Of a DNA stretch of 64,000 nt, positions 22,993 to 64,000 are shown piece by piece (the stretch's first letter is position 1; every line of letters begins with the position of its first letter). The position numbers were made by a program, and so were the translations under genes. Below the pieces are notes generated by a model. It saw nothing but the letters and a program-made list of their open reading frames with translations, searched no databases and was not told the origin of the DNA. This stretch comes from Escherichia coli (GTDB lineage: Bacteria; Pseudomonadota; Gammaproteobacteria; Enterobacterales; Enterobacteriaceae), in assembly GCF_003019035.1 (NCBI RefSeq), contig NZ_CP027447.1; one strand, 5' to 3'.

Positions 22993-23031
22993 GTGCGGAA
23001 TGCCTGAGTATTTTTAGAATAGGGGGGTAAT

Positions 23032-23433: not shown

Positions 23434-23548
23434 CCATGTTATGTATAGACATTTTAGATGGAACGAACCAGAGGAAGGCATGCCTCCGACTTGGGTTATA
23501 TGGGCACGGAGTTTTAGTGTAGTGAACTCAACGACGCAAACCGAATAA

Positions 23549-23739: not shown

Positions 23740-23883
23740 CAGGGAAAGATCACGTAACGCTGCTTTTTTGTACTAAATAATTCGCATTTTATGTTTAAAA
23801 ATTGAGATATTCCTCATTACCTAAAGCTGTTTTTCATTGCTTATACATGATCAAATACTCCTTACATAATTAAGGAGAACAAA

Positions 23884-33979: not shown

Positions 33980-34125
33980 CTGTGTTTCCGGTGAAATATT
34001 TTTTCACCTTATTAATGGGTATTTGCATCTGGTTTAATTTTTACAATTTTTTATGTTCAGCCATATAAAAAGAACCCGCTCTATTAAAGGCGGGTCCGGA
34101 AAGTGAACGGCTTAGCAATCAACCA

Positions 34126-45709: not shown

Positions 45710-45711
45710 AT

Positions 45712-45810
45712 ATCTGTAATAAGAAATAGCCCTCGCCGCTTCCCTCTACAGGAATGGCGAAGGGCTGTCGGTTTCGACATGGTTGGCCATCATATGATGG
45801 CCTTTTTTAT
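45712..45810 (+). ncRNA. sdhX: 3'UTR-derived sRNA SdhX (RybD) with intrinsic terminator
   Basis: Sequence immediately after sucD stop ending in hairpin ggttggccatcatatgatggcc plus T-run, the known location of SdhX. Confidence 0.6.
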
Positions 45811-47204
45811 GCCTTAAACGTTAACCACGGTCGAAATCTGACCGCAGGTTGAATTAATCCGGCTTCTTGTTGGGCTTCGATAACCGGACCAATATCTTTA
45901 TAAGCCGCTGGCGCTTCTTCAAGACGTCGTTCTTCGCGCAATGTGACGCATTGCCACGGCAGCGTTGACTCTTCAGTCGCGCTTGAGCGCATGGCCTGCC
46001 GACGCTGGCTGCGTCCTGCTCCGTGACTGCAAGACCACAGCCACTCCGGGTTGCCGCAACCAACCGCAAGCCACGAATAATCACCCATGGAACCGGGGAT
46101 TAACGCCAGATCGCCCGCGCGTGCCGGTGTTGCACCTTTGCGATGAATATTCATTTCATGCTCGTGAAGGATGATGTTATGCGGCACATCCACCACCAGA
46201 TGTGAATCATCCTGATGAAATAAATCGGCAAAACATACGCGAACCATTTCCGCAATGGTCACGCGATTTAACCATGCGTAACGCGCCGCCATTCCCATCG
46301 CTTGTAGATATTCCTCCGCCAGTCCGCCTGCCAGGCCATATAACCCGCTTTGTGGATGTTTATGTCCGGTGGGCCATTCAGCACGGGCGCGATCCATCCA
46401 GCGTCTTCCGACGTAAAAGCCAACATCTCGCGATCCACTGTGGATCATCACCACAATATCGCCCGTTTTCAGCCCTTGTTGCCAGGCAACATGGCGATCA
46501 ACCACGCTATCAACCACCTGAAGTTCAATAAAATGATTACCTGAACCCGGCGTACCAAGACAAGGATCGCGGAGTAATGGGCGGTCCGTTACCAGCAGGG
46601 CGGGTGGGGCATAACGCGAATGACTGTTATGCTCGTTAAGCCCAATGCAGCGGTCAATCTCTTGTACCATTCGGGGGATATTCGTGCGTGTCCAGAGACC
46701 TGCTGATGGCAAGGCTGACATGCACTCTGCCGGTCCGTCATCAAAAAGCGCGGTGAACGCCTGTGCGGATAACGGAACATCGCGCTCATTTTGCAGTAGC
46801 ACTTGCGTTAACCGCTGAGCGATGACGTCTTTATTCGCTTCGGCTTGCTCAAGTGTTAATCCGGTCGTCAGCAGCCGCATGCCACAAGAAATATCGGTGC
46901 CGATGGCCGCAGGAATGACTAAATCCGGCGTAGAGGCGACTACCGCGCCAACGGGGACGCCATTGCCGGGATGAAAATCTGGCGTCGCACAGGTCTGGCG
47001 TACGTAACCTGGATGGTCTGGTATCTTCACTTCTGCAAAATCAAGCAGTTGTGTCACTGCTTTTTCTTCCAGCGGCAGTTCGTCCGGCAGCAGTACGTGG
47101 GCACTGGCTCCTGATGGACGACATAATGAAACAATATTGTTGGCGCGGGAAAGTTGGATCCCTTTGCGCAGAAAGGCTTTATCAAGCCTTGAAAGATGAT
47201 GCAT
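45807..47204 (-). CDS. RtcB-family RNA ligase paralog (465 aa), first gene of accessory island
   Basis: RtcB motifs DISCGMR, PGSGNHFIE, MIHSGSRDVG, PGSMGDYSW, SCSHGAGR; about 60-aa N-terminal extension relative to RtcB; 3' end overlaps sdhX terminator. Confidence 0.8.
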   Translation of the reverse strand: MHHLSRLDKAFLRKGIQLSRANNIVSLCRPSGASAHVLLPDELPLEEKAVTQLLDFAEVKIPDHPGYVRQTCATPDFHPGNGVPVGAVVASTPDLVIPAAIGTDISCGMRLLTTGLTLEQAEANKDVIAQRLTQVLLQNERDVPLSAQAFTALFDDGPAECMSALPSAGLWTRTNIPRMVQEIDRCIGLNEHNSHSRYAPPALLVTDRPLLRDPCLGTPGSGNHFIELQVVDSVVDRHVAWQQGLKTGDIVVMIHSGSRDVGFYVGRRWMDRARAEWPTGHKHPQSGLYGLAGGLAEEYLQAMGMAARYAWLNRVTIAEMVRVCFADLFHQDDSHLVVDVPHNIILHEHEMNIHRKGATPARAGDLALIPGSMGDYSWLAVGCGNPEWLWSCSHGAGRSQRRQAMRSSATEESTLPWQCVTLREERRLEEAPAAYKDIGPVIEAQQEAGLIQPAVRFRPWLTFKA

Positions 47205-47961
47205 AACGCTGTCCTGAAATATAGACGTTAAACAACCCCCTTTATTGCGAGGGTAATTTTGTCTTTCCGGTCAGCAGCCAGCAAAAGGGAAAGAAAACGC
47301 GCGTAGTGTATGCAGCAATGACGATCAATACAAGATAAAAAAGACTATTAACAAACGGGGGTGTTATAAAAGGGGTCAGTTATCGACGCCAGATTGTAAA
47401 ATATGAAAAATGATAATTTCCAGTGGATATATTTTAAGATTTATTTTTACGCCTGTTTTTACGTCGGGTAACTATCCATTGTTGCCGTTTTTTAATTATC
47501 AAAAGTGGGATGAAAACAAATGGATTATTAATGATAATAAAACATGTCTTTATGACGAATAATGAAGATCTTATTTTAAATATCATTGTGTTATGCGCAC
47601 TGTGTGGTGTCGGAACACCTGTTGTTACGCTTATATCTGGTCGTTATTAACGCATTTCTCATATAATTAAATTACTGACATCTTGCAATCTCATCATATT
47701 CATATGTTCAAATTAGAAAATATTTTGCCAACAATATCACTTTTTCGACAAGTTAAATTAAGCATATTGAATTCGCATACAACGCGTTGGTGGTTTTGAA
47801 TTTATATTCATAGTGAATATACCACGACAAACAATATTCACTAAATGAATTAATAATACAAAATGATAAACGGGAATTATAGAAACCGTTTCTATATTCA
47901 TTCGTTCGTTTTTTCTGACCGATTACAGCGTTTAATTTTATCAAGTAACAGGAGAAGATTC
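47205..47961. promoter_or_regulatory. Long AT-rich divergent intergenic region (RtcB-like / hutU promoters)
   Basis: About 760 bp of very AT-rich DNA without ORFs >= 60 aa; only short ORFs such as 47531..47650 (39 aa, hydrophobic). Confidence 0.5.
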
Positions 47962-49659
47962 ATGAGTAAGCCTTCAGACCCGCGTATTGATACCAGCCGT
48001 GTAATCCATGCGCCACACGGTACGCAGCTGCACTGCAAAAACTGGCAGATCGAAGCTGCCTATCGGATGTTGCAGAACAACCTTGATCCCGACGTTGCCG
48101 AAAATCCACAGCATCTGGTGGTGTATGGTGGTATTGGTCGTGCGGCACGTAACTGGGAGTGTTTTGACAAAATCCTTGAATCACTGAAAAATCTGGAAGC
48201 TGATGAGTCACTGCTGGTTCAGTCCGGTAAACCCGTAGGCGTGTTTAAAACGCATACCGATGCGCCGCGCGTATTGATTGCCAACTCTAACCTGGTACCG
48301 CAATGGGCCAACTGGGATCATTTCAATGAACTGGATCGTAAAGGTCTGTTCATGTACGGCCAGATGACCGCTGGCTCGTGGATCTACATCGGTAGTCAGG
48401 GCATTGTGCAGGGAACGTTCGAAACCTTTGTTGAAGCGGGTCGTCAGCACTACAACAATTCGCTGAGTGGAAAATGGATCCTGACCGCAGGGCTAGGTGG
48501 TATGGGCGGTGCACAACCGCTGGCGGCGACTCTGGCGGGGGCGTGCTCATTAAATATCGAGTGCCAGCAAAGTAGCATCGACTTCCGTCTGCGTACCCGT
48601 TATGTCGATAAACAAGCGAAAGATCTTGATGATGCACTGGCGCTGATTAAATACCACACCGAACGCAAAGAAGCCGTTTCTATCGCGCTGCTGGGCAATG
48701 CGGCGGAAATTGTTCCTGAGCTGGTGAAACGTGCACGTCAGGGATCGATCAAGCCGGATCTGGTGACCGACCAGACCTCCGCTCACGATCTGGTCTATGG
48801 TTACCTGCCAATGGGCTGGAGCGTAGAACAATGGCGTGCTGCACAGCAGGATCCACAACAGCACGCCAGACTGCAAAAAGAAGCGGCGCAGAGTTGCGTG
48901 GCGCATGTTCAGGGGATGCTGGACTTCCAGGCGATGGGGATCCCGGTTGTCGATTATGGCAACAACATCCGCCAGGTGGCCTTCAACGAAGGTCTGCAAA
49001 ATGCCTTTGATTTCCCGGGCTTTGTTCCGGCTTATATTCGTCCAATGTTTTGTGAAGGCAAAGGTCCATTCCGTTGGGTGGCGCTGTCTGGCGACCCGGA
49101 AGATATCTATAAAACTGATGCCAAAATTAAAGAGTTGTTCCCCAATAACGTACTGACGCATCGCTGGCTGGATATGGCGCGCGAGCGCATTGCCTTCCAG
49201 GGACTTCCTTCACGTATTTGCTGGCTGGGGCTTGGTGAGCGTCACCTGGCGGGGCTGGCATTCAACGAAATGGTGCGCAACGGTGAACTAAAAGCACCGA
49301 TTGTGATTGGGCGCGATCATCTTGATACCGGTTCTGTCGCCAGCCCGAACCGCGAAACCGAAAGCATGCTTGATGGCAGTGATGCGGTTTCTGACTGGCC
49401 GTTGCTCAACGGTTTGCTCAACACTGCAGGGGGAGCAACGTGGGTATCCCTGCATCATGGCGGCGGCGTCGGGATGGGGTATTCACAACACGCCGGGATG
49501 GTTATTGTTGCCGATGGTAGCGAAGAAGCCGAAAAACGTCTGGCGCGTGTGCTGGTGAATGACTGTGCGTCCGGGGTTATGCGTCATGCGGATGCGGGTT
49601 ATGAGGCGGCAATTGAATGTGCCAAAAACTATGGTCTGAAATTACCGATGATTCGCTAA
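47962..49659 (+). CDS. hutU: Urocanate hydratase (565 aa)
   Basis: ORF 47863..49659 with start [10 protein letters not shown] preceded by GGAG; canonical urocanase sequence throughout ([53 protein letters not shown]). Confidence 0.9.
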
Positions 49660-49822
49660 ATATTAACGCCGTCATTTAATATTTGCGCTAATACAGGCGG
49701 AGAATAATTCGCCTGTATAACAATAATTATCAAAAAATATTTTTACATCGTCGAGAGAAATATCTCCCGACCCTCTATTGCTGTTTCAAAAAATGACCTC
49801 TCATTATGCAGGAGACTTTTTC

Positions 49823-51232
49823 ATGGAATCAAGCAGCCCTATCCGCAGTAAAAAGCCAGTATTAGAATCAAATACGATTAACGCCGTTCCTGAGTCTGCT
49901 CGCCACGGCTCGCCATCCAGTCAGTTTACTTTATGGCTAAGTGCTAACTTACAAATTACCGCTGTGGTGGACGGCGCGTTAGCGATTATTTTTGGCTCCG
50001 AAGCCATGTCAGCAATAATTGGTTTATTAATCGGTAATATTATTGGTGGTGCAGTAATGGCATTGCACTCGTCGCAGGGGGCAAAGCTGGGATTACCCCA
50101 GATGATCTCCAGTCGTATCCGCTTTGGCGTTAAAGGAGCGGCGCTACCGTTACTGATGGTGATTATTATGTACCTTGGATTTGCCGCGACGGGTACAGTA
50201 TTATCCGGTCAGGCGATTAACCGGATATTTGGTTTCGAATCGGCATCGACCGGAATTATTATTTTCGGCATGCTGACCGCGATGATCGCATTGGTCGGTT
50301 ATAAACTTATTCACGTCGTTGGCCGTGTTGCAGGGATATTAAGTATTCTGGGGTTTATTTACCTGGCTACTCAACTTAGCGGTCACTACGATGTGGCTGC
50401 GGCATTTGGTCAAAAGCCATTTAGTCTGTCGGTCTTTTTATTAACGATTGCTCTCTCTGCCGGATGGCAATTAACGTTTGCCCCTTACGCCTCTGATTAT
50501 TCCCGCTATTTACCCTCTGATACGCCAGCAAAATCAATCTTCTTTGCCACCTTTCTGGGAACCACGCTTGGCGCGCAATGTGCCATGACGTTTGGCGTGC
50601 TTGTTGCGGCCTGTGGTGCTAACTTCCTGAAGGATCAGGTTGGTTTTATGGGTGAGTTAGCCGGACCCACCTTCGCCATTCTGATTTATACGGTGATTGT
50701 TTGCGGCAAACTGACGGTGAACTGTTTGAATGCCTACGGTGGCTTTATGTCGATTCTGGCGACCGTCAGCGCCTTTAATAATCGCAGTCAGGTTTCACAG
50801 CGTGTTCGTGCTGCCTACGTTGTAGGGTTCGTGCTGTTGTCGATGGTCGTCGCGCTGGCGGCAAGCGCAGATTTTTTGAATAATTTCAAAAACTTCGTTC
50901 TGCTGCTGTTGACGGTATTTGTGCCGTGGAGCGCCATTAATCTCATCGACTACTACTTCATCTCACAAGGTAAAACCGATATTCCGGCACTTTATACCCC
51001 GGAAGGGCGTTATGGCGCGTATAACAAAACCGCTTTGACGTGCTATGGCGTAGGCGTGTTGGTGCAGATCCCCTTCCTGAATCAAAAACTGTATCAGGGA
51101 CCCATTTCTGTCCTGATGGATGGGGCGGATATCTCCTGGATTGTCGGCTTGTTAATTACCGCCGTTATCTATTACCCGTGGGCCAAACGCACCACCTGCG
51201 TTCCTGCTTATACGATTTATCCCGAGTCTTAA
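49823..51232 (+). CDS. NCS1-family (cytosine/purine/allantoin-type) permease, candidate urocanate/substrate importer (469 aa)
   Basis: Polytopic membrane protein; start MESSSPIRSKK preceded by GGAG at 8 nt; inside the hut-like operon. Confidence 0.7.
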   Translation: MESSSPIRSKKPVLESNTINAVPESARHGSPSSQFTLWLSANLQITAVVDGALAIIFGSEAMSAIIGLLIGNIIGGAVMALHSSQGAKLGLPQMISSRIRFGVKGAALPLLMVIIMYLGFAATGTVLSGQAINRIFGFESASTGIIIFGMLTAMIALVGYKLIHVVGRVAGILSILGFIYLATQLSGHYDVAAAFGQKPFSLSVFLLTIALSAGWQLTFAPYASDYSRYLPSDTPAKSIFFATFLGTTLGAQCAMTFGVLVAACGANFLKDQVGFMGELAGPTFAILIYTVIVCGKLTVNCLNAYGGFMSILATVSAFNNRSQVSQRVRAAYVVGFVLLSMVVALAASADFLNNFKNFVLLLLTVFVPWSAINLIDYYFISQGKTDIPALYTPEGRYGAYNKTALTCYGVGVLVQIPFLNQKLYQGPISVLMDGADISWIVGLLITAVIYYPWAKRTTCVPAYTIYPES

Positions 51233-51233
51233 T

Positions 51234-51824
51234 ATGGAACCGATGCTGATTTCTGCAATGGATAAGCCGCTGCAACCGTGGCGCAACGGCGGGGGGGTTA
51301 CCCGACAGCTGCTTGCCTGGCCCGATGATGAAAACTGGTTGTTGCGCATCAGTATGGCGAATGTCAGTCAGGATGGCCCTTTTTCAGCGTGGCCTGGCGT
51401 GGTTCGTGGCCTCGCGATCCTCGACGGGGAAGGGGTGAAGCTAACGTTTGCCGATTCGATCATCAACCTGCAACGTCACGATCCCGCCTTAATTTTCCCT
51501 GGAGAAGCTATGCCTGATTGCCAGCTGCTGGGCGGCGGGGTTCGCGATCTGAATGTTATGGCGCGGGAAGGCGATACGGGGATGTTGCGGGTGCAAAGTG
51601 CCGTTGACTGGCTTCCTCCGTCACTTGCGCAAGCGGGCCTGTTCACGCTGTGTGAAGGGGAGTGGATAAGCGGCAAGAAAAGGGTGTTTGTCGCGGCAAA
51701 TATGTTGTTATGGCTGGTTGCACCTGATGGCAGGCCCTGGCGTTTCGTACCACGGAAGAAAGTCTCCGTCGGTGAGCTGGCGGGCTGGTGGCTTTATTAT
51801 CTACGAGGGGAAAAATCCTTATGA
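51234..51824 (+). CDS. hutD: HutD-family protein (196 aa)
   Basis: Motif [12 protein letters not shown] typical of HutD/Ves family; 4-nt overlap with hutI start. Confidence 0.7.
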
Positions 51825-53032
51825 GTGCATTAACGCTCTGGCGAAATACCACGCTGGCGACGCTTTCCGCTAACGATTGGGGAGTGATTGAAAAGGGGGC
51901 ATTAATCAGCCGTGGCGACACTATTGTCTGGCTTGGCAAGGCCACGCAGATCCCTCGCGAACTGACGGCTGACATTACAGAGGAACACGACCTGCAGGGT
52001 AAGTTGCTGACACCCGGTCTGGTGGATTGCCATACGCATCTGGTGTATGGCGGCCAGCGGGCGAATGAGTTTGAGATGCGGCTGCAAGGCGTGGCTTATG
52101 AAGATATCGCCAGAGCGGGCGGCGGGATCTTATCTACCGTCAATGCTACGCGGGCGGCCAGCGAAACACAACTGTTTGAACTGGCGGCGCAGCGACTACA
52201 AAACTGGTTGCGTGAAGGCGTCAGTACGCTTGAAATCAAATCGGGTTATGGCTTAACGCTGGAAGATGAAGCGCGTTGTTTACGCGTGATCCGCCGCTTG
52301 CAGCAATCTACCGGGTTACATATTCAGTCTACGTTTCTCGGGGCGCACAGCCTGCCGCCAGAGTTTGCCGGGCGCAGTGATGATTACATTACGGCGCTTT
52401 GCGACTGGATGTGCGTGTTGCATGAACAGGGGCTGATTGATGCAGTTGATGCTTTTTGTGAAAACATCGCCTTTACTCCAGAGCAGGTACGGCGCGTTTT
52501 CAGTAAAGCGCAAAGCTATGGATTACCTGTAAAACTGCATGCCGAACAGCTTTCTGACCAGCAAGGCGCGGCGCTGGCAGCGGCGTTTTCTGCACTCTCC
52601 TGCGATCATCTGGAGTACCTGAGCGAGTCGGGGATCGCCGCCATGAAAGCGGCTGGAACAGTGGCGGTTTTGCTTCCCGGTGCTTATTACTTCCTGCGCG
52701 AAACCCATCTGCCGCCGATTGTCGCTCTGCGGGCCGCAGGTGTGCCGATTGCTATCTCCACGGACCATAATCCCGGAACGTCTCCCAATATGTCATTGCC
52801 ATTGATGATCAATATGGCCTGTACGCTGTTTCGCATGACGCCGCTGGAAGCCGTTCAGGGCGTTACGCGTAATGCGGCAAAGGCACTTGGACTTATTGAC
52901 CGGGGTGAACTTGCACCGGGATTACGGGCGGATATGGCGGTCTGGGATCTTAATCATCCACGTGAACTGGCTTACTGGTTTGGGCATCAGCCTTGCCAGG
53001 GGCTTATTGTCGGCGGAAAAAGGAGTTGGTAA
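51821..53032 (+). CDS. hutI: Imidazolonepropionase (403 aa)
   Basis: ORF 51788..53032 with start MSALTLWRN; amidohydrolase metal-binding motifs ([29 protein letters not shown]). Confidence 0.85.
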
Positions 53033-53982
53033 TGAAGCAAACATTTTTGCCGTGGAGTGGGCGTGTTGACTCGCAGGAAACCGGCATCAGCACTCGCTGG
53101 CATCAGCATGTGCAACCGTTTAGTGAACAAAGCCACGGCGATTGTACGCTGATTGGTTTTGCCGTTGATGACGGAGTGCAACGTAATGGTGGGCGAGCGG
53201 GTGCAGCAGGCGGACCGGGCGCGTTGCGCAGCATGTTGGGAAATATGCCAGTGCTCTGTGAAGGCGCTATTTTCGATATGGGCGATGTACAAAGCGAGGA
53301 CCACGCGCTGGAATCCGCACAAAACCGTCTGGCGGCTAACGTATCTACAGCCATTGCGCGCGGCAGTTTACCGGTGGTTCTGGGGGGCGGTCATGAAGTG
53401 GCGTGGGGAACATTTCAGGGGATTATGCAGTCGCGTCCGGATATTCAGCGGTTACTGATTGTGAACCTTGACGCGCATTTTGATTTACGGATGGCGGAAC
53501 AAGCCAATTCAGGTACGCCGTTTCGTCAGATGCAAGAGTGGAACGCGCAGCATGGCAAACCGTTTCATTATCGCGTGCTGGGAATAAGTCGTTTTGCCAA
53601 TACTCAGGCGTTATTTGATCGCGCTGACTGTCTCGGTGTGCGTTATTGGCTGGACGAATCTCTGCAATTTGAACGTGGTTTGCATGAGATCGCTAATGCG
53701 CTCTCGGCAGATATTCAGGCTTGTGACGCCATTTATTTAACGATTTGTCTCGATGTTTTACCAGGTTATCAGGCGCCCGGTGTTTCTGCTCCATCACCGT
53801 TAGGCGTGCCGTTAAATATTACTGAAGCCATTGTGAATTTAATCGCCGGTAGCGAGAAGTTGATTGCTGCGGATATTGCCGAACTTAACCCGGACCTGGA
53901 CCGCGATAATTTAACTGCGAAAGTTGCCGCTCGCCTGGTGACCAGTATTGTCCGGCGGGGGAAAACAGATAGAACAAATTAA
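53032..53982 (+). CDS. hutG: Formimidoylglutamase (316 aa)
   Basis: ORF 52993..53982 with start MKQTF after AAGGAG; arginase-family motifs GGGHEVAWG, NLDAHFDLR, SGTPFRQ, IYLTICLDVLP, VSAPSPLGVPL. Confidence 0.85.
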   Translation: MKQTFLPWSGRVDSQETGISTRWHQHVQPFSEQSHGDCTLIGFAVDDGVQRNGGRAGAAGGPGALRSMLGNMPVLCEGAIFDMGDVQSEDHALESAQNRLAANVSTAIARGSLPVVLGGGHEVAWGTFQGIMQSRPDIQRLLIVNLDAHFDLRMAEQANSGTPFRQMQEWNAQHGKPFHYRVLGISRFANTQALFDRADCLGVRYWLDESLQFERGLHEIANALSADIQACDAIYLTICLDVLPGYQAPGVSAPSPLGVPLNITEAIVNLIAGSEKLIAADIAELNPDLDRDNLTAKVAARLVTSIVRRGKTDRTN

Positions 53983-54032
53983 AACGTTGTCGCAGTAACC
54001 CGTTGTTAAACTCATCATGATAAGGAAACACA

Positions 54033-55703
54033 ATGAAAGGATTGATACGAAGAGTCACTGTCACCGTTGTGCTCTGGAGCGTTTGCTCCATCGCGATGGC
54101 AAAATCAACCATTACGCTGGATGGCGAACATCTCTCTATTGACCAGGCCTGGTCAATTGCATTAGGTGATAACGGCGTCAAAATCGCGTCGAACGCCATG
54201 GAGCGCATGGAAAAAAGTTATGATCTGGTGATGACTGCCGCGCATTCAGGTACGCCTGTTTATGGCTTAACCGTGGGCGTGGGGCTAAATAAAGATCAGC
54301 CCATATTTGATGCCAAAGGAAATTTAACGCCTGAGGTGATTGACGCATCGAAAAAATTTAATGCTGCCGCGCTGCGCGCCCATTCTGCGGGCGTCGGTCC
54401 GATGTTGCCGGATTATCTTGCCCGTCTCTCAATGGTGTTACGTTTAAATACTATGTTGCATGGGCAAACCGGCGCGCAGCCTTATATTGCCGAGTTGTAT
54501 GCCGAGTTTATTAATCGAGGCGTTACGCCGTTAATTCCGGCGCGGGGAAGTATCGGCGCAGCGGATATTATGCTCGCTTCACACGTTGGTCTGGTGATGA
54601 TGGGCGAGTGGAAAGCGCGGGTTAATGGCGTGGAAATGAGTGGTGGCGATGCGCTTGTGAAAGTGGGGCTTAAACCACTGGTCCCGCAGGGTAAAGATAT
54701 GCTGGCGATTTTATCGAACAACAGCGTCGGGACAGCCTACGCTATCGAAGCTGTTCGTTCGGCACGTCAGTTGCTGAATGTCAGCCCGGTGGTTTTCGCT
54801 ATGAGTCTGGAAGCGTTGAATGGTAACGTCGCACCAGTACTGCCGCAGTCAATTGCCGTGCGTCCTTTCCCGCAGTTGGCTGACTCTGCAAAAGAGATTC
54901 GCGATGCGTTAAACGGTTCATATTTATGGCATAAAGATGACGAACGTGCATTGCAAGATCCGTTATCGTTCAGAACTACGGTATATACCATTGCTGAATC
55001 AGTACGCGCTTTGCATGATGCTGAAGAGATCATAACCGTACAAATCAACAGTTCCGATGATAACCCAGCAACGGTGCTAAATGCTGACAAGGCGTATCAG
55101 GACTCCAGTCAGGTCGCGCAATATTTTGTTAAAGATGGCGCAGTCAGCGGCGGGATCTTCCCGACGGCGAACTTCGAATCGTTACCGGTTGCGCTTGCCA
55201 CTCAGCGTCTGACCGTGGCGTTGGTACATGTTTCGCATAACAGTATGCGTCGCTCGCTGCACCTGGAAGATGAGCACTTTACCGGTTTAACGCGCTTCCT
55301 GTCGGCACCCGGTAATAAAGGTCACGGCTTCGGTTCATTACATATCCCGTTTGTTGCGCTGCATGCGGAAAATGTCGATCTCGCTAACCCGGTTTCTTTC
55401 GATATTCAACCGGTAGCCGGAGGCATTGAAGATACGGGTGCCAATAACGACCACGCGGCGAGAAAATTGAAACAGGTTGTCGATAATCTGAACGTGATTT
55501 ATGGCATTGAACTGATGCATTCCGCACAGGCTCTCGATTTACGGTTGCAGGCCGATCCACAACTGGCATTAGGGAAATCCACCAAAGCAATGTTTACCGA
55601 ATACAGAAAAGTCGTGCCGTTTGTCGACCAGGATCGGGTCTTTACCCCAGATATTGCAGCTTCGCAAAAATTCTTAGAAGGATATGCTATAAATCAAAAA
55701 TAA
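54033..55703 (+). CDS. HAL/PAL-superfamily protein lacking the MIO-forming Ala-Ser-Gly triad, with predicted N-terminal signal peptide (556 aa); candidate MIO-independent lyase, not a canonical histidase
   Basis: Aligns along its length with histidine ammonia-lyase (PARGSIGAADIMLASH vs HAL GSVGASGDLAPLAH; SNNS vs NGTQ); N-terminus MKGLIRRVTVTVVLWSVCSIAMA-KS is Sec-signal-like with AxA site; AAGGAA RBS 5 nt upstream. Confidence 0.75.
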   Translation: MKGLIRRVTVTVVLWSVCSIAMAKSTITLDGEHLSIDQAWSIALGDNGVKIASNAMERMEKSYDLVMTAAHSGTPVYGLTVGVGLNKDQPIFDAKGNLTPEVIDASKKFNAAALRAHSAGVGPMLPDYLARLSMVLRLNTMLHGQTGAQPYIAELYAEFINRGVTPLIPARGSIGAADIMLASHVGLVMMGEWKARVNGVEMSGGDALVKVGLKPLVPQGKDMLAILSNNSVGTAYAIEAVRSARQLLNVSPVVFAMSLEALNGNVAPVLPQSIAVRPFPQLADSAKEIRDALNGSYLWHKDDERALQDPLSFRTTVYTIAESVRALHDAEEIITVQINSSDDNPATVLNADKAYQDSSQVAQYFVKDGAVSGGIFPTANFESLPVALATQRLTVALVHVSHNSMRRSLHLEDEHFTGLTRFLSAPGNKGHGFGSLHIPFVALHAENVDLANPVSFDIQPVAGGIEDTGANNDHAARKLKQVVDNLNVIYGIELMHSAQALDLRLQADPQLALGKSTKAMFTEYRKVVPFVDQDRVFTPDIAASQKFLEGYAINQK

Positions 55704-55785
55704 AATTTTTGTTGATTGTTTGTCATAATATCCATAGATATGATAATTGCTATCAATTTAATAATCTTCACTTAACTTGAATCAT

Positions 55786-55826
55786 AATAATCCGAAGGGC
55801 GTTTTGCTTTTCGGATTATTATTGTC
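55786..55826 (+). terminator. Terminator after the hut-like operon
   Basis: Inverted repeat ataatccgaagggcgttttgcttttcggattatt followed by T-rich tract. Confidence 0.6.
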
Positions 55827-55973
55827 TGATTGAGACAATTGTCACGCCAGGCTTACCAGGTTATAAATATCGAACATGATTTTTATAAAATATTGATTGC
55901 TGCTTTGGTTGCCATTACTTAGCAATAAGTAATGGTTTTTTGATAGTTTCAACTATTTTTAAGGGAAGGCATT

Positions 55974-56879: not shown

Positions 56880-56912
56880 AACCTGCGCCTGGCGGGATGC
56901 CAGGCGCAGTTA
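56880..56912. terminator. Bidirectional terminator between convergent LysR gene and cobalamin adenosyltransferase gene
   Basis: Inverted repeat ctgcgcctggcgggatgccaggcgcag. Confidence 0.6.
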
Positions 56913-57515: not shown

Positions 57516-57524
57516 TCATTTTCC

Positions 57525-59177: not shown

Positions 59178-59284
59178 ATTTCACTTTTCACCTTAAACGT
59201 TAGTTTTACTTAATTGCCGTCTAACTTCATGATCCGGCTTATAAAAATGCGTAGTCATTGGCTTCTGATTGCTTAAGATCCCCC

Positions 59285-60565
59285 TCAGGGCAGAGCAACG
59301 TTCGATTCATTGGGTTTTAATGCTTTACCCCGACAGCCCTCGCCGAAATGTTCGCCTTCCCACCGACTCACCATCGCAGCGCCCATTGCGTTGCTCATGA
59401 CGTTTGTCGCGGAACGCCCCATATCAAGGAACGGATCAACGCCCATCAGCAAGATCAGCCCCGCTTCCGGAATATTGAACTGGTTGAGCGTGGCGGCGAT
59501 AACCACCATTGAGGCGCGTGGTACGCCAGCCATTCCTTTCGAGGTCAACATCAGGATCAACAGCATGGTGATTTGCTCACCGATGGATAAATGGATATTG
59601 CAGGCCTGGGCGATGAAAACTGTGGCGAAGGAGCAGTAGGCCATTGATCCAACGAGATTAAATGAGTAGCCAATGGGTAAGACAAAGCTGGCAATTTTGG
59701 GGGAAACGCCAAATTGCTCCAGTTTTTCAAGCGTTCCCGGAAAAGCCGCTTCAGAACTGGATGTGGTAAATGCCAGCAGGGCGGGTTCCGAAAGGGCACG
59801 GGTCAGGCGTCTGATGCAGGGGCCGACATAAACGATGGCCAGACCGATAAGCAGCACCCAAAGTAACAACATGGTGAAATAAAATTCACCCATAAAGATC
59901 CCGGCGCTCACCATAACTGCCAGTCCTCGTTCAGCAATCAATGCTGAAATAGCGGCGAATACGGTCAGGGGAGCGAAGAGCATGACGTAGCCAGTGAGCT
60001 TTAACATGGCATGTGCCAGCGAATCTAAGGCGTGAACGATGGCGCTGCCTTTCTCACCAATCGCCGTCAGGCTACAGCCGAGGAAAATTGAGAACACCAC
60101 GATTTGCAAAATTTCATTGTGCGCCATGGCATCGACAATGCTGGTGGGGAAAGCATGCGAAATAAATACTTTTAGTGTAAAGGGTTCTGACGCGACCACT
60201 CCGGTGGTTTCGGCACCGTGTGCAACAAAATTAATTCCTGTGCCTGGCATGAAGAAATTTACCGTTATCAAGCCTAAGGCAATTGACAGCAATGAGGCGC
60301 AAATAAATAAAAAGAGTGTTTTAGAAAAAATACGACCAAGGGCTTTGGCATCTCCCATTTTAGCTATACCTACCACCAGGGTAGAGACCACTAACGGAGC
60401 GATAATCATTTTTATCAGTCGTAAGAAAATCGTCGTGAATATCGATATTTCTTGCGCATAGAGTTTTGCGGTTTCCGGTGAAGCAGTGTTATTGAGCACT
60501 ACGCCGATAATCATTCCAAGTACCAGCGCCAAAAGAATCATCGTGGTTAAACTTATTTTCTTCAT
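59285..60565 (-). CDS. Dicarboxylate/amino acid:cation symporter family transporter (about 426 aa)
   Basis: Polytopic membrane protein; start MKKISLTTM with GGAGG 5 nt upstream; DAACS-like fold inferred. Confidence 0.7.
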   Translation of the reverse strand: MKKISLTTMILLALVLGMIIGVVLNNTASPETAKLYAQEISIFTTIFLRLIKMIIAPLVVSTLVVGIAKMGDAKALGRIFSKTLFLFICASLLSIALGLITVNFFMPGTGINFVAHGAETTGVVASEPFTLKVFISHAFPTSIVDAMAHNEILQIVVFSIFLGCSLTAIGEKGSAIVHALDSLAHAMLKLTGYVMLFAPLTVFAAISALIAERGLAVMVSAGIFMGEFYFTMLLLWVLLIGLAIVYVGPCIRRLTRALSEPALLAFTTSSSEAAFPGTLEKLEQFGVSPKIASFVLPIGYSFNLVGSMAYCSFATVFIAQACNIHLSIGEQITMLLILMLTSKGMAGVPRASMVVIAATLNQFNIPEAGLILLMGVDPFLDMGRSATNVMSNAMGAAMVSRWEGEHFGEGCRGKALKPNESNVALP

Positions 60566-60725
60566 TTTTTCCTCCATCAGGTGCACGGCGATAAATCAGA
60601 ATCAGGAGAAGTAGATGCCTGAATAGAGATTCAGGCATCTACCTGCTATTACAACCTTACAAATAGCTGAAGTGTTGAACTGCAATAAGTGACGGGATGT
60701 CAGTTGGCTAAAAGTATTCGGATTT

Positions 60726-61043
60726 TTACAAATCGAAACTCATATTTAATAAAGGTGCATGTTGCTGTGCACCATAGACATCATTGTCACCTACATTCCC
60801 GGAGATAATATCTCGTGGCATGACGATTTTTACTGCGTTAGAAGGATCAAACCAGACAATACGGTGAATAAAGTCAGGTTCAACATGATATAAGCGCGCA
60901 ATCAGTTCTGGGGTTAATTGCCCTGATGATTTAACTCGCTCATAGTTTTCTTTCGTTTTAAATAAAATATCTAAAACCAGTTCGTAAGGTCCGGCATTTT
61001 TCGAACGAATGACTTGCGCCAGTGAGACAATTGACTGTTTCAT
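60726..61043 (-). CDS. Small conserved protein of unknown function (105 aa), tentatively DUF4387-like
   Basis: ORF translationally coupled (4-nt overlap) to upstream unknown gene; family assignment from memory, unverified. Confidence 0.6.
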   Translation of the reverse strand: MKQSIVSLAQVIRSKNAGPYELVLDILFKTKENYERVKSSGQLTPELIARLYHVEPDFIHRIVWFDPSNAVKIVMPRDIISGNVGDNDVYGAQQHAPLLNMSFDL

Positions 61044-62410
61044 GCCTGAACTCCTTCTGGCGTCACCTGTTCAATATGGAAATCAAAACGCAGAGCGTCG
61101 TTGGCTTCAATCAGGTGATATATGGAAAATTCGTATACCGGCCCGCCCTGGATATCAGAAGGGGAGAACGGGAACGCCAGATTGCCTGCGGTAGCGATGC
61201 GGTTTTCATAGCCGTAGTGCAGCATGGTAGAGCGCACCAGCGAGCAAACGCTATTGGCAATTTCCTGGGTCGGTGCAACTACATCAAGGACAATCCCCAG
61301 CTCATGCCCGGCAGTTTGCATCGGTTCATGGTCGCCCATCACCCCATTTTTGCCGTACAGGTGGAAATTGATGCGAATGCTGTCATCGTCGAGCGACAGG
61401 TTACGTGAAACGCTGGTTTTGACTTCATCGATGATTTTATCGATCCCGGCGATCATGATCGGGTCGCGCGTTCCTGCGATGGTCAGACAGCGGAAGCCCA
61501 CCCGTCGCGCACCTTCCAGTTTCAGGGCATACGGCGTTTCTTCATGCTTAGAACCGCTGACGTACACTTCGCCGTCATTGACCGCTTTAAATGTGCAGCC
61601 TTTCAGGTTCAACACGCCGCCAGGTCCAGGCAGGAAGTAGGGATCGGATTTCTCATACAGTGTGTGTGCAGCCGCTGACGTTTCGGTAAATTTACGCTTC
61701 GGATTAAATGTCTTCAGCGTAAAGCCGTTGTCATCAATGATGCCCATCGCACAGTCAGAGCCTGAGCCGGGCGTTGCGGCGATTGCCGCGCATTCAAGGA
61801 TTTTCCCACAATGCAGCGCCAGACCTTCATCAAAGCCTTGCATGATCGGTAGCGCAGCAAAGCAGGCCGGGTCGTAAGCGCGCCCGCCCAGCACCACTTG
61901 CGCGCCTTCTTTCAGCGCCTGCTGGAAGGGTTCGATGCCCATTTGCGCGACGATATACGTACTTTCGTCAATCGCGTCGTGGGTTAACGGCGGGACAAAA
62001 TCCAGCGCCGTGATTTTGCCGTTATCCAGCGCCTGGTGGACGATGGCTTTGTCAACGTCTGCCGGGATCAACGCCATCGAGAACGAGAGGTGCTCTTCCT
62101 GGGCAATCTCATGAATTATTTCTCGGCACCACTCCAGGTGTGGAGCGGCACCAGAACCGCCGGCCGTTCCGATCACCACCGGTATATTATTTTGCACGCC
62201 TGCGGTGATCATATAGCGCAGATCGCGCTTGACCCCTGCGCGATCGGTAAACGGTTTGCCCGCTCCGAGGTAGTGGGGGCCAGGATCGGAAGAGCCTGCA
62301 TCAACGGCGATCAGATCGGGCGATTCTGCCATCGCTTTGCGGAAGCTCTCTTCAGGGAATCCATACCCGAGGATTGCCGTTGGCGATAAGACTTTAAAAG
62401 AACGAGCCAT
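61040..62410 (-). CDS. Conserved protein of unknown function (456 aa), tentatively DUF1446/AtuA-like
   Basis: Long ORF with good coding signal immediately downstream of mal; no recognisable catalytic motif; family assignment tentative. Confidence 0.65.
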   Translation of the reverse strand: MARSFKVLSPTAILGYGFPEESFRKAMAESPDLIAVDAGSSDPGPHYLGAGKPFTDRAGVKRDLRYMITAGVQNNIPVVIGTAGGSGAAPHLEWCREIIHEIAQEEHLSFSMALIPADVDKAIVHQALDNGKITALDFVPPLTHDAIDESTYIVAQMGIEPFQQALKEGAQVVLGGRAYDPACFAALPIMQGFDEGLALHCGKILECAAIAATPGSGSDCAMGIIDDNGFTLKTFNPKRKFTETSAAAHTLYEKSDPYFLPGPGGVLNLKGCTFKAVNDGEVYVSGSKHEETPYALKLEGARRVGFRCLTIAGTRDPIMIAGIDKIIDEVKTSVSRNLSLDDDSIRINFHLYGKNGVMGDHEPMQTAGHELGIVLDVVAPTQEIANSVCSLVRSTMLHYGYENRIATAGNLAFPFSPSDIQGGPVYEFSIYHLIEANDALRFDFHIEQVTPEGVQA

Positions 62411-62413
62411 TTG

Positions 62414-63655
62414 TTAATCCTTAGCCTGCAACAGCGCGATAGTACGATTCATTTCGTTGAAGACGATATCGAGGCCTTCGTCAAAGCCCATCCCTGGCTT
62501 TACCAGCATACGCATAGGGCGAGCGGCAAGGGCGACGTGGACACAGGTGCGGGCACTGACATCAGTTTCATTGCAGGTGCCGCCCTGGTACGCTTCCATG
62601 CTGTGGCTGTTGCAGTAAAGAACCGCATCGACGATGTTGTGAATACTGCCCAGATCCGGGGTTTTGATTTGCACCATGTGGCAACTGGCGGCATCAGTGA
62701 AATCAACAATATCCTGGTAGGTGTTACACCATTCATCGGCCACAATTTTCACGCCGGAACCGAGGCGCGTCAGCTCTTTGGTAATCGCGGTCAGCAGGCG
62801 AATTTGATCGGGCTTGTTACCGGCATCGACCGGCCCTTCAATGTAGAGCGGCAGGCCTTGCGCTTCTTTTTCCAGGCTGGCGATGTATTGCGCACAGCGA
62901 AGCGGATCCATATCGAAGATCAGGCCGATAGTGCCGTATACATCGATGTGCAGGGTTGGGTGGTAGCGTGCGCTGGTGCGCTTGCTCAGAATACGATCCG
63001 ACAGCCAGCGGACATATTCGCGCAGTTTTTCACCTTTAAAGCCCAGTTTCTCTTCGACGTTATTAATCAGTGCATGGGGCAGCACGTCGATGCCCTTAAG
63101 GATCATCTTATCGACGGCGATATATCGATCGTCCCCGCTCTGACCAAATAATGGAATGGATTCCGCCACGCGTGGCAACTGCCATTCATCGCAAACTACT
63201 TCAGTTTTCAGACGGCCGGTTGCCAGCGCGGTAGCATCAAGCAGCGCCTGTGATAATCCGTAGCGCACGGCGGTATGTAGCAAGTTGCCGTCAATACGCA
63301 ATTTGTCGAAGAAACGGGCATTCGGCAGGAAAGCATCCACATCGCGGCCTACCAGTAATGGCTTGATATGGTCGTTGAGGAACGGAATAAAGTGCTCTGC
63401 GAGGAACAGTGGATCGCGACCACCTGCCCCGGAATACTGTACGGCAGCACAGTCACCTACGGCGACCGCGCCGTTTTCCAGAATCAACTGTACCGATACG
63501 CACTCCCCGGCCTGACGTACGGCGTTAAACCCCTGTGTTACTGGCTCCCCGGTATAAAAAAAGCCGTCGTGACCCGCTCCGTTTTTTATCGCCTGCTGGT
63601 CATCGAAATAGAATGAGGAGTAGCCAGCGGTGAACAGGGCCTGTTTTATTTTCAT
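62414..63655 (-). CDS. mal: 3-methylaspartate ammonia-lyase (413 aa)
   Basis: Enolase-superfamily MAL motifs: AGHDGF, CAAVQYSGAGGRDPLF, SGDDRY, VLPHALINNVEEKLG, ADEWCNT, MVQIKTPDLG, GGTCNET, KPGMGFDEG. Confidence 0.9.
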   Translation of the reverse strand: MKIKQALFTAGYSSFYFDDQQAIKNGAGHDGFFYTGEPVTQGFNAVRQAGECVSVQLILENGAVAVGDCAAVQYSGAGGRDPLFLAEHFIPFLNDHIKPLLVGRDVDAFLPNARFFDKLRIDGNLLHTAVRYGLSQALLDATALATGRLKTEVVCDEWQLPRVAESIPLFGQSGDDRYIAVDKMILKGIDVLPHALINNVEEKLGFKGEKLREYVRWLSDRILSKRTSARYHPTLHIDVYGTIGLIFDMDPLRCAQYIASLEKEAQGLPLYIEGPVDAGNKPDQIRLLTAITKELTRLGSGVKIVADEWCNTYQDIVDFTDAASCHMVQIKTPDLGSIHNIVDAVLYCNSHSMEAYQGGTCNETDVSARTCVHVALAARPMRMLVKPGMGFDEGLDIVFNEMNRTIALLQAKD

Positions 63656-64000
63656 TATGGTCTTCCTATTAATTTACTGTGGGATACAGCATTGATGTCA
63701 TCTACAACCATCTGGAATGTCGGTTGGCGTCCTTCAAAGCGTGCGCGTTCCGCAACGTAATCGTGGTGGAGGTCGAGAATATCTTTTGGCAATGGAACGG
63801 CTCCGGCTTCCAGTACGCGTATCGCGCCGGTGTTGTCACGGACCGGAAGAATTTTGCCCGCGTTGCAGGCGGCTGGCGCAAACGGCACATCCAGTACGCC
63901 CGCTTCAAATGCTAGCACCGTACCGCGCGCAATATCACCATTACCCAGTTCGAACACTTTATTCAGTACCGCGCGAACCTCGCTCTTAATCAGTTCAATT
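63655..64000 (-). CDS. glmE: Glutamate mutase E (large, B12-dependent) subunit, C-terminal part only; gene continues beyond window
   Basis: C-terminal sequence ...FELGNGDIARGTVLAFEAGVLDVPFAPAACNAGKILPVRDNTGAIRVLEAGAVPLP...FEGRQPTFQMVVDDINAVSHSKLIGRP resembles clostridial GlmE/MutE C-terminus; stop overlaps mal start by 1 nt. Confidence 0.8.
   Translation of the reverse strand, partial: IELIKSEVRAVLNKVFELGNGDIARGTVLAFEAGVLDVPFAPAACNAGKILPVRDNTGAIRVLEAGAVPLPKDILDLHHDYVAERARFEGRQPTFQMVVDDINAVSHSKLIGRP

Follow-up and report, generated by a model that had tools for sequence, protein, structure and literature searches.

In a 64,000-nucleotide stretch of Escherichia coli DNA (contig NZ_CP027447.1; hereafter the window), we find that the region downstream of sucD is a mosaic of modules in which a secreted lyase and a Hut operon would degrade hercynine to glutamate beside a known methylaspartate cluster, a reading to which we give a probability of roughly 0.6. 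This rare E. coli operon probably degrades histidine betaine (hercynine) rather than histidine. The new point, on our best reading, is that a secreted lyase without MIO stands in for the cytoplasmic, MIO-dependent histidine ammonia-lyase usual in a hut operon. The gene identities, the missing MIO, the leader peptide, the substrate-binding residues, the linkage to Hut genes and the population structure are established at the sequence level.

Sequence common to all E. coli layouts (K-12, O157 and EFF60 types) stops at position 45812 of the window, just past the sucD terminator hairpin, in agreement with the original prediction that core synteny ends at sucD. The genes that it listed are all present, at or near where it placed them. 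An E. coli genome 100% identical to the window, SCU-301, continues past the window end with glmE, glmL, glmS, two hypothetical genes and cydA, so the accessory stretch extends about 5 kb farther and glmL and glmS lie outside the window after glmE, as foreseen. The source strain lacks mngR-mngA-mngB, and the interval to consider is therefore sucD-cydA, not the sucD-mngR interval first put forward. The GC content of the accessory part, suggested earlier as a check, is 0.49-0.50, which is about normal for E. coli and does not point to a recent foreign origin. We found no integrase, IS element, tRNA or flanking repeat at the borders. The first features are as follows.

45710..45812, plus strand: sucD 3' UTR and terminator hairpin (hairpin at 45785-45802, then a T run)
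45807-47204, minus strand: rtcB-like gene, 465 aa (Pfam RtcB PF01139, E 2e-95)
47205..47961, no strand assigned: AT-rich regulatory stretch between the divergent rtcB and hutU (GC 0.325)
47313..55955, plus strand: hut module boundaries, set by comparison with genomes lacking it (blastn junctions)

The rtcB-like gene scores 205 against the NCBIfam RtcB model (cut-off 407) and in other genomes adjoins mngRAB without hut genes; this orphan RtcB-family gene is an independent module (module 1). The rtcB-hutU intergenic region holds dyads of the form ATTCA-N3/5-TGAAT at 47805-47850 and showed no regulator gene, no Rfam match and no sigma-54 match.

We determined the distribution of the modules over 5426 complete E. 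coli genomes. The glutamate cluster is present in 1118 of them (20.6%) and the hut module in 143 (2.6%), so the stretch is accessory rather than universal, as had been claimed. Every hut module had the glutamate cluster alongside, and none was found without it in this set. In a further 836 genomes, including O157:H7, the site holds decayed remnants of rtcB and the lyase gene, which marks their layout as derived by deletion; 87% of glutamate-cluster genomes have either the module or such a scar. The glutamate cluster stands without the hut module in 981 genomes, and in strain EFF60, 463 unrelated bases occupy the place of the module. At least five module combinations occur, one of them a maximal layout with all modules. 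The sucD-cydA region is a variable segment of separable modules (mngRAB, rtcB-like, hut, and LysR plus the glutamate cluster), instead of the single island originally proposed.

The hut module comprises six genes.

47962-49659, plus strand: hutU, urocanate hydratase (TIGR01228 score 934, cut-off 375)
49823-51232, plus strand: NCS1-family permease, probable urocanate importer, HutTu-like (PF02133)
51234-51824, plus strand: hutD, HutD/Ves family (SCU-301 annotation; weak Ves match)
51821-53032, plus strand: hutI, imidazolonepropionase (TIGR01224 score 454, cut-off 298)
53032-53982, plus strand: hutG, formimidoylglutamase, yielding glutamate and formamide (TIGR01227 score 291, cut-off 229)
54033-55703, plus strand: secreted MIO-less HAL-family lyase, probable hercynine trimethylammonia-lyase (sequence, fold and context)
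54033-54101, plus strand: putative lyase signal peptide, codons 1-23 (hydrophobic N terminus, MKGLIRRVTVTVVLWSVCSIAMA, then cleavage before K)

These genes are co-oriented, with spacings of -4 to 163 bp between neighbors (the lyase starts 50 bp past hutG), and therefore probably form a single operon. HutU, HutI and HutG each exceed their NCBIfam equivalog cut-offs, which bears out the prediction that the hut-like genes end in glutamate. HutU starts at 47962 (annotated, preceded by AGGAG) and not at the open reading frame start, 47863; it matches Pseudomonas putida urocanase 1uwl with 949 bits. All of the hut genes are under purifying selection, with a dN/dS of 0.017 for hutU and 0.06 to 0.075 for the lyase. 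A 67%-identical Comamonas testosteroni homologue of the permease lies inside hutC-hutH-perm-hutU-hutD-hutI, and HutTu/PA5099 has been named a urocanate transporter (PMC12977541); the substrate of the permease is probably urocanate. The closest lyase relative outside Escherichia (85% identity) has an 85%-identical permease homologue as its sole partner, and hut and glutamate genes are both missing from its 14-kb contig.

The lyase is preceded at its long start by a strong ribosome-binding site, AAGGA. Its hydrophobic N terminus ends in AMA, is kept in proteobacterial homologues and forms a detached low-confidence helix in the predicted structure. The Ala-Ser-Gly (MIO) motif is missing, and GSIGAADIM stands in its place. 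The HutH model score of 277 falls below the cut-off of 539. The best PDB match is the Treponema denticola ergothionase 6s7j (293 bits, 36% identity, versus 170 bits for HAL), to which the predicted fold aligns with TM scores of 0.81/0.91. Y77, H117, Q308, R314, N339 and E466 are invariant among the homologues aligned, and the lyase keeps the catalytic Tyr as well as the residues that bind the carboxylate and the imidazole. Characterized homologues that lack MIO yield trimethylamine and show no deamination of histidine (bioRxiv 10.1101/2025.08.13.670108; 10.64898/2026.04.22.720169). We rejected the original reading of this HAL-like gene as a histidine ammonia-lyase on the missing MIO motif, the signal peptide, the HutH failure and the kinship to ergothionase. 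The same features suggest that the entry substrate is likely the trimethylated histidine hercynine and not histidine.

Downstream lies the LysR gene and, on the opposite strand, the glutamate cluster (together, module 3).

55974-56879, plus strand: LysR-type regulator, GcvA-like (NCBIfam search; accompanies the glutamate cluster)
56913-57515, minus strand: cobO, corrinoid adenosyltransferase (NF004637 score 296, cut-off 185)
57525-59177, minus strand: fumD, class I fumarase/mesaconase (NF011921 score 1285, cut-off 1060)
59285-60565, minus strand: dicarboxylate/amino acid:cation (DAACS) symporter, GltP/DctA-like (SCU-301 annotation; under the GltP and DctA model cut-offs)
60726-61043, minus strand: DUF4387 (SCU-301 annotation)
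61040-62410, minus strand: AtuA/DUF1446 (SCU-301 annotation)
62414-63655, minus strand: methylaspartate ammonia-lyase (TIGR01502 score 544, cut-off 286)
63655..64000, minus strand: glmE, glutamate mutase E, 3' part (TIGR01503 model positions 368-480)

This is the B12-dependent FumD/methylaspartate cluster already known from Kronen and Berg (2015) (PMC4682846), and the glutamate mutase, methylaspartase and mesaconase-type fumarase of the original prediction are confirmed by NCBIfam and by that study. FumD shares 99% identity with its O157 counterpart, for which that study measured mesaconase activity; the LysR gene appears as LTTR in Fig 5 of the same paper and is also found where the hut module is absent, in the O157 and EFF60 layouts. 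DUF4387 and AtuA/DUF1446 had no NCBIfam match and are marked there as of unknown function. Kronen and Berg found no conditions that expressed the cluster in O157:H7 (PMC4682846).

In the proposed pathway, the lyase would convert hercynine (N-alpha-trimethylhistidine) in the periplasm to urocanate and trimethylamine, the HutTu-like permease would bring in urocanate, and HutU, HutI and HutG would convert it to L-glutamate and formamide. Module 3 (LysR, cobO, fumD, symporter, DUF4387, AtuA, methylaspartase and glmE-L-S) would take glutamate to mesaconate and (S)-citramalate, with the corrinoid supplied. Passage of Hut-derived glutamate into module 3 is plausible. The predicted coupling held physically, with the clusters linked in 143/143 hut carriers; no operator-like motif common to the upstream regions of hutU, LysR and glmS was found beyond chance. 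Given the mosaic, the non-HAL lyase, the lack of a citramalate lyase gene and the lack of a common motif, functional coupling of hut and glutamate genes is therefore still hypothetical. We see even odds that the adjacency is purely historical, the product of a recombination and deletion hot spot, with independent modules and Hut glutamate joining the general pool. The five or more module combinations, including the glutamate cluster without hut and the maximal layout, fit such a history, as do the opposite strands, the separate AT-rich control regions without a shared motif, the divergence (lyase dS of 0.29 versus about 0.01 in the glutamate genes) and the report of the cluster in other enterobacteria without mention of hut genes (PMC4682846). 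However, the hut module was never apart from the glutamate cluster in the 5426 genomes, module or scar accompanies most copies of the cluster, and the pathway logic fits because glutamate is the shared intermediate.

The lyase might act on another N-alpha-trimethylated imidazole, such as a ring-methylated or substituted histidine betaine, or supply an enoate for reduction, in which case its presence in the hut operon would relate only in part to urocanate assimilation. SO_3299 is specific for N-pi-methyl histidine betaine although it, too, lacks the ergothionase Lys, and absence of Lys is thus no guarantee of hercynine activity; the specificity residue is Asn in the histidine-betaine lyase Swoo_3913 and Gln in the N-pi-methyl-betaine lyase. 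The subgroup of the E. coli lyase has a signature of its own at this position, Ile/Val preceded by His, and other members lie in non-hut contexts: in Enterococcus they neighbor a CoA-transferase gene together with an NMO-like reductase and an MFS transporter, and on a Pseudomonas-like contig the surroundings are hydroxyproline-type genes. These points also weigh against the hercynine reading. We nevertheless consider such a substrate unlikely, since the lyase gene is packed closely into one operon that also encodes a genuine urocanase and a permease of the hut type, and no reductase gene was found in the region.

It is quite improbable that the lyase is an ergothionase, the gene behind the 1962 "ergothionase from E. 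coli," in an operon degrading ergothioneine. The nearest solved structure is an ergothionase, the lyase shares 52 to 57% identity with periplasmic homologues that carry the Lys and have the gene arrangement of Shewanella oneidensis SO_3056-3058, where the lyase is a proven ergothionase, and E. coli extracts reportedly showed the activity, yet no E. coli homologue had been recognized (PMC13405746). However, Ile438 occupies the position of the thiolate (sulfur)-binding Lys384, reported essential for ergothionase activity; HutU scores 671 against the thiourocanate hydratase model (cut-off 930) and 672 against that for S-methyl-thiourocanate hydratase (cut-off 880), too low for either; HutI and HutG are classical; and the region has no desulfhydrase or hydantoin-type genes. 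Least credible is the dedicated anaerobic route of the original prediction, from histidine or imidazoles through a histidine-deaminating HAL to citramalate and pyruvate: the Hut enzymes are genuine, the clusters are side by side in all hut carriers, most other glutamate-cluster genomes keep a lyase scar, and glutamate is the substrate of glutamate mutase, but the lyase lacks the MIO motif, carries a leader peptide, fails the HutH model and has characterized homologues that do not deaminate histidine, no motif is common to both clusters, the linkage was not seen outside Escherichia on the contig of the 85%-identical relative, and a citramalate lyase gene is missing from the sucD-cydA region, its activity being undetectable in O157:H7 (PMC4682846).

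The hercynine reading is closest to Swoo_3913 of Shewanella woodyi (bioRxiv 10.1101/2025.08.13.670108). Both proteins are periplasmic HAL-family members of about 553 to 556 aa without Ala-Ser-Gly, share Tyr77, His117, Gln308, Arg314, Asn339 and Glu466/467 by the published residue numbers, lack the ergothionase Lys and have urocanate and trimethylamine as expected products. They differ at the specificity position (Asn versus the His-preceded Ile) and in their partners: Swoo_3913 is paired with a urocanate reductase, also periplasmic, that serves anaerobic respiration, and the E. coli lyase with a urocanate-type permease and HutU/I/G for assimilation. Swoo_3913 is not among the 120 lyase homologues listed, which go down to 52% identity. 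The ergothionases Td_ETL (6s7j) and the periplasmic S. oneidensis SO_3057 (bioRxiv 10.64898/2026.04.22.720169) share the MIO-less fold and residues but have Lys384 where the E. coli lyase has Ile, and they neighbor thiourocanate hydratase or flavocytochrome c instead of classical urocanase, HutI and HutG. Compared with the canonical Hut systems of Pseudomonas and Comamonas, HutU (83% identical to Comamonas), HutI, HutG, HutD (37% identical to its Comamonas counterpart) and the permease are orthologue grade, and the perm/hutU-hutD-hutI order is similar. Unlike those systems, the E. coli module has neither a MIO-type HutH nor a HutC-type regulator, and entry is by the secreted lyase, with histidine probably no substrate. 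The O157:H7 cluster (PMC4682846) has identical genes, order and location from LysR through glmS, with proteins 99 to 100% identical; it is preceded only by rtcB/hut scars, whereas in the window rtcB is intact and the hut module is present.

We recovered the gene list of the original prediction from the annotation of E. coli SCU-301, a human rectal isolate that is 100% identical over the 18.3-kb stretch, and from an ORF list and NCBIfam scans. The prediction had also placed glmL and glmS past the window end, and SCU-301 bears this out: there, the remainder of glmE is followed by glmL, glmS, two hypothetical genes, and cydA. The genes that follow sucD in the window are arranged as follows.

45807-47204, minus strand: rtcB-family gene, after sucD
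47313-55955, plus strand: hut module, with hutU, an NCS1 "cytosine" permease, hutD, hutI, hutG, and a HAL/PAL/TAL-family lyase (54033-55703)
Next after the lyase: LysR-type regulator
Up to 64000, minus strand: cobO, class I fumarase, DAACS symporter, DUF4387, AtuA/DUF1446, methylaspartate ammonia-lyase, and the end of glmE

The window strain lacks mngR-mngA-mngB, which are part of the K-12 layout. Junction mapping placed the last base homologous to all other layouts at 45812, directly past the sucD terminator hairpin, and limited the hut module to 47313-55955, where it stands in place of 463 unrelated bases of EFF60. No integrase, IS element, or tRNA is annotated in the segment, the module borders, searched for flanking repeats and signs of mobile elements, gave short chance repeats only, and a plasmid search for the hut module returned only distant hutU fragments. 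An Rfam scan of 45 to 64 kb produced a single chance miRNA match. Comparing GC content and codon usage with those of the core, as originally proposed, was uninformative on foreign origin; the GC content of the accessory segment is an unremarkable 0.49 to 0.50. The composition swings of the window are due to an Rhs element (17249-24651). Its core gene (17249-21445), which reaches a GC content of 0.62, is frameshifted; behind it come orphan genes for a toxin tip and immunity, AT-rich at GC 0.36, and then an ISAs1 transposase in truncated form (23902-24651). In the abrB-gltA interval (33605-34000), the sole gene is a truncated one for a type 1 fimbrial subunit; a fimbrial operon occupies this site in K-12 and appears to have been deleted in the window strain.

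At least five layouts of the region occur among annotated examples.

K-12/W: sucD-mngRAB-cydA
EFF60: mngRAB-rtcB-LysR-glutamate cluster
JNE112863: mngRAB-rtcB, then a truncated glmE
O157:H7: sucD-LysR-glutamate cluster
Window: rtcB-hut-LysR-glutamate cluster
2022H048, with all modules: mngRAB-rtcB-hut-LysR-glutamate cluster

Searches of 5426 complete E. coli genomes found the glutamate part (56900-64000) in 1118 (20.6%) and the hut part (47300-55900) in 143 (2.6%), and requiring at least 80% of the full 18.3 kb returned the identical set of 143 genomes. These frequencies uphold the accessory status that had been assigned to the segment, but the claim of one island did not survive the several layouts and the negative tests for a mobile island. 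The segment is a mosaic, not a single island.

The 667-bp sucD-LysR spacer of O157:H7 holds fragments of rtcB (amino acids 375 to 398 and 451 to 462) and of the lyase (amino acids 378 to 397 at 90% identity and 511 to 557 at 87% identity). This spacer (8011-8676 of the fetched O157:H7 locus) matches window positions 45599-45852, 46024-46080, 55162-55222, and 55566-56097, with the rtcB-like and lyase fragments at 84 to 91% DNA identity. Because the spacer retains remnants of both genes, the O157 layout is a deletion derivative of an rtcB-plus-lyase ancestor, which recasts the "intergenic" spacer as a compound deletion scar. The O157:H7-type scarred spacer is present in 836 genomes and the EFF60-type spacer in 145; together with the 143 hut-module genomes these make 1124, covering essentially all genomes with the glutamate cluster. 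From these spacer and module counts, 87% of glutamate-cluster genomes have the hut module or its scar, and linkage of the FumD/glutamate mutase cluster to this hut operon was once widespread. We detected no deletion scars of the island in the mngB-cydA spacer of the K-12/W type. The rtcB-like gene is an orphan with a Pfam RtcB match spanning residues 62 to 463, a score under the NCBIfam RtcB equivalog cutoff, and no adjoining rtcA or rtcR partner; it is intact in about 295 genomes and left as remnants in 836 others. Upstream of cydA, the K-12/W-type locus (L095, 15474-15900) and the island-type locus (L001, 35682-36111, outside the window) are 82.8% identical, far less than core genes are; the cydAB promoter region therefore exists as two haplotypes tied to the neighboring variable segment.

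The lyase belongs to PF00221, has a HAL/PAL-type fold, and carries GSIGAADIM (residues 172 to 180) where HutH/HAL has GSVGASGDLA, so it has no Ala-Ser-Gly triad to form MIO. Its best solved relative is the Treponema denticola ergothionase Td_ETL (6s7j; 293 bits, E value 4e-86, versus about 170 bits for the Pseudomonas putida HAL), and its predicted fold matches 6s7j at 36% identity with TM scores of 0.81/0.91, while HALs are 25 to 27% identical. MIO-less members of this family are trimethylammonia-lyases that do not deaminate histidine, among them ergothionases, including the periplasmic SO_3057, the histidine-betaine lyase Swoo_3913, and the N-pi-methyl-histidine-betaine lyase SO_3299 (bioRxiv 10.1101/2025.08.13.670108 and 10.64898/2026.04.22.720169). 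Tyr77, His117, Gln308, Arg314, Asn339, and Glu466 of the E. coli lyase have the numbering reported for Swoo_3913, a comparison made through the residues quoted in the preprint, and none of the six varies in alignments A1 and A2 or, where aligned, in the fetched loci. By its fold, its lack of MIO, and these retained residues, the lyase is predicted to fall within the MIO-less trimethylammonia-lyase group, with trimethylamine as a putative product.

Within that group, an ergothionase in the strict sense is unlikely because the lysine reported as essential is absent: Lys384 of Td_ETL is required for binding the ergothioneine thiolate (same preprints), and the E. coli lyase has Ile438 at this position, in a GSLHIP motif versus the GAIQK of Lys-type homologues. 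His437-Ile438 also differ from the Asn in Swoo_3913 and the Gln in SO_3299, and SO_3299 shows that absence of the lysine does not guarantee hercynine activity (preprint). Swoo_3913 is not among the best 120 homologues of the lyase. The HAL-like gene of the original prediction is not a histidine ammonia-lyase HutH, since it lacks the ASG motif and scores below the cutoffs of both HutH models (277 < 539 for TIGR01225 and 293 < 524 for NF006871).

The lyase is also predicted to be secreted. Its translated N terminus, MKGLIRRVTVTVVLWSVCSIAMA followed by KSTITLDG, has a basic n-region, a 13-residue hydrophobic core, and an Ala-x-Ala site, and N termini of this kind are kept in proteobacterial homologues; these features and their conservation point to a signal peptide. 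An AAGGA ribosome-binding site precedes the long start, while the internal Met22 start of some annotations has none, and the AlphaFold model shows residues 1 to 22 as a detached helix of low confidence. Between E. coli alleles, the lyase gene is 92.7 to 93.9% identical in DNA (54033-55703 versus 15738-17408 of L092 and 15746-17416 of L093, two other E. coli loci), with a dS of 0.24 to 0.29 and a dN/dS of 0.06 to 0.075. Its neighbors diverge far less (hutU to hutG, 96 to 99.8% identity; LysR to methylaspartase, 99 to 100%), which suggests old allelic classes of the lyase or import by recombination.

A survey of the best 120 homologues and about 80 genome loci showed three signatures at the position equivalent to Lys384: GA[IV]QK, GATED, and GSLH[IV]P. 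The GA[IV]QK (Lys) lyases come from Shewanella, Ferrimonas, Sutterella, Hafnia, Citrobacter, and E. albertii, and nearly all have flavocytochrome c genes beside them; those of Achromobacter and Comamonas lie near a HutU homologue of only 48 to 49% identity, probably a thiourocanate hydratase. The GATED lyases, with Asp for Lys, come from Sutterella, Parasutterella, Turicimonas, and Duodenibacillus, and in most loci (GATED loci L050, L053, L056-L057, L059-L064, L066-L068, and L073) they adjoin a different flavoprotein reductase, only 31 to 34% identical to the flavocytochrome of Lys-type clusters. In a neighbor-joining tree the GSLH[IV]P lyases, to which the Escherichia proteins belong, are monophyletic. 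Another member is an 85%-identical secreted protein whose sole relevant neighbor is an 85%-identical NCS1 permease, and a third is a 67%-identical secreted protein amid hydroxyproline-type genes. The Enterococcus members are cytoplasmic and lie in a conserved five-gene module (L007, L011, L014-L016, and L072; lyase at about 10001-11590) of a sigma-54 activator, a family I CoA-transferase, an MFS transporter, the lyase, and an NMO/IMPDH-like flavoprotein, which could be a betaine-to-enoate reduction pathway in Gram-positive gut bacteria. A FAD_binding_2 or cytochrome c gene adjoins most of the more distant homologues. Among the surveyed loci, the lyase and true hut genes occur together only in Escherichia and in one gut MAG labeled Citrobacter, the genes of which are 97 to 100% identical to those of E. 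coli.

From hutU to the lyase, the hut module is a tightly spaced six-gene unit with a 50-bp gap between hutG and the lyase. HutU matches TIGR01228 with a score of 934 (cutoff, 375), the P. putida urocanase 1uwl with 949 bits, and a Comamonas HutU with 83% identity; it falls short of the cutoff in two curated models, one for thiourocanate hydratase (671 < 930) and one for S-methyl-thiourocanate hydratase (672 < 880). HutI (TIGR01224, 454 against a cutoff of 298) and HutG (TIGR01227, 291 against 229) are likewise classical enzymes, so the hut-like route of the original prediction stands in these three steps and fails where the MIO-less lyase (277 < 539) was taken for a HAL. A 67%-identical homologue of the permease lies inside a Comamonas hutC-hutH-(gntR)-perm-hutU-hutD-hutI cluster, and in Nocardia a homologue has a GntR/UTRA regulator as its partner. 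PA5099 of Pseudomonas is presumably also an NCS1-family protein. It has been described as HutTu, a dedicated urocanate transporter (PMC12977541).

Our best guess is that a secreted urocanate-forming lyase, a urocanate importer, and HutU/HutI/HutG make up a complete and economical pathway with hercynine as substrate. In the periplasm, the lyase would split hercynine into urocanate and trimethylamine; the permease would import urocanate; and HutU, HutI, and HutG would convert it through imidazolonepropionate and formiminoglutamate to glutamate and formamide. No betaine transporter is encoded, and the proposed pathway needs none. Between divergent E. coli alleles, every hut gene shows purifying selection (dN/dS of 0.017 for hutU and 0.06 to 0.075 for the lyase), so the module is in use and not decaying. 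We found no HutC (GntR/UTRA) repressor, with no GntR gene in the sucD-cydA interval and no substantial ORF in the AT-rich (GC 0.325) 757-bp leader of hutU. The leader also has no recognizable RNA element, and a sigma-54 promoter search gave fewer matches than chance expects. It does contain two dyads, ATTCA-N3-TGAAT and ATTCA-N5-TGAAT (47805-47850), and a third, TAGAAACCGTTTCTA (47880-47894), located 70 to 160 bp upstream of hutU. These are candidate operators and, since no hutC is present, would serve some other regulator.

Exactly this glutamate cluster was described by Kronen and Berg in E. coli O157:H7 and other enterobacteria, with the LysR regulator, CobA, the transporter, and the DUF1446 gene listed in it; they found it in 26.5% of E. 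coli strains and showed FumD to be a mesaconase/fumarase (PMC4682846). The proteins of the window are 99 to 100% identical to their O157 counterparts. The glutamate fermentation genes named in the original prediction, for glutamate mutase, methylaspartase, and mesaconase, are present (matches to TIGR01503, TIGR01502, and NF011921, with glmL and glmS past the window end), but its pyruvate end is not supported, as we found no citramalate lyase (cit-type) gene in the segment. In O157:H7, no expression conditions were found and neither methylaspartase nor citramalate lyase activity was detected (PMC4682846). Given these negative results and the missing lyase gene, the route to citramalate and pyruvate is a genetic potential. 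In every layout, the symporter and methylaspartase genes are separated by the overlapping pair DUF4387 (GC 0.39) and AtuA/DUF1446 (GC 0.55) (60726-62410); both are candidates for the missing step downstream of citramalate.

The proposed coupling of the two modules holds as physical linkage, since all 143 genomes with the hut module also have the glutamate cluster. The linkage is absolute in E. coli and, judging from the deletion scars, old. Glutamate is a metabolite common to both modules, and cobO is on hand to adenosylate salvaged corrinoid; E. coli does not synthesize B12 de novo. Against this, the modules are separable and read from opposite strands, each with an AT-rich control region of its own, and a search for a motif common to the upstream regions of hutU, LysR, and glmS gave nothing beyond shuffled controls. 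Their divergence histories differ sharply (dS of 0.24 to 0.29 for the lyase versus about 0.00 to 0.04 in the glutamate genes), and the nearest non-Escherichia lyase-permease pair is not beside hut or glutamate genes. For these reasons, we regard functional coupling of the hut module to glutamate fermentation as plausible but unproven.

A more novel and wider reading is tentative, with a probability of roughly 0.3. Under it, a small share of gut E. coli, some 2.6% of the complete genomes, would have the first assimilatory histidine betaine pathway, in which the periplasmic lyase would free trimethylamine from dietary or fungal hercynine and imported urocanate would become glutamate for the adjacent methylaspartate cluster under anoxic, corrinoid-replete conditions. 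Gut bacteria produce trimethylamine, from which TMAO is formed; the sources recognized so far are choline, carnitine, betaine, and ergothioneine. If the reading is right, carrier strains would be a gut source of trimethylamine that had gone unrecognized, and their lyase would be the E. coli member long missing from the ergothionase enzyme family. E. coli has been said to have no recognizable ergothionase homologue, and a 1962 report of the activity has been doubted (PMC13405746, 2026). Some E. coli strains carry an intact, selectively maintained member of this enzyme group; E. coli W, our guess at the historical 1962 strain, has the K-12 layout without the lyase. The misannotated "HAL/PAL/TAL family ammonia-lyase" gains a directly testable substrate-to-gene hypothesis.

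Neither the glutamate cluster nor its location is new, and the MIO-less lyase family has been described in work of 2019 to 2026. The family contexts known earlier are cytoplasmic ergothioneine catabolism or periplasmic respiratory modules only, and we did not find in the searchable literature a periplasmic member that takes the place of HutH as the first enzyme of a urocanate pathway serving assimilation. In the respiratory modules Swoo_3912/3913 and SO_3056-3058, a periplasmic reductase gene lies adjacent to the lyase gene, while the E. coli region has no FAD_binding_2 or cytochrome c gene for a flavocytochrome or urocanate reductase. Unlike the periplasmic members described so far, which all serve respiration, the E. 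coli lyase would be wired to urocanate assimilation.
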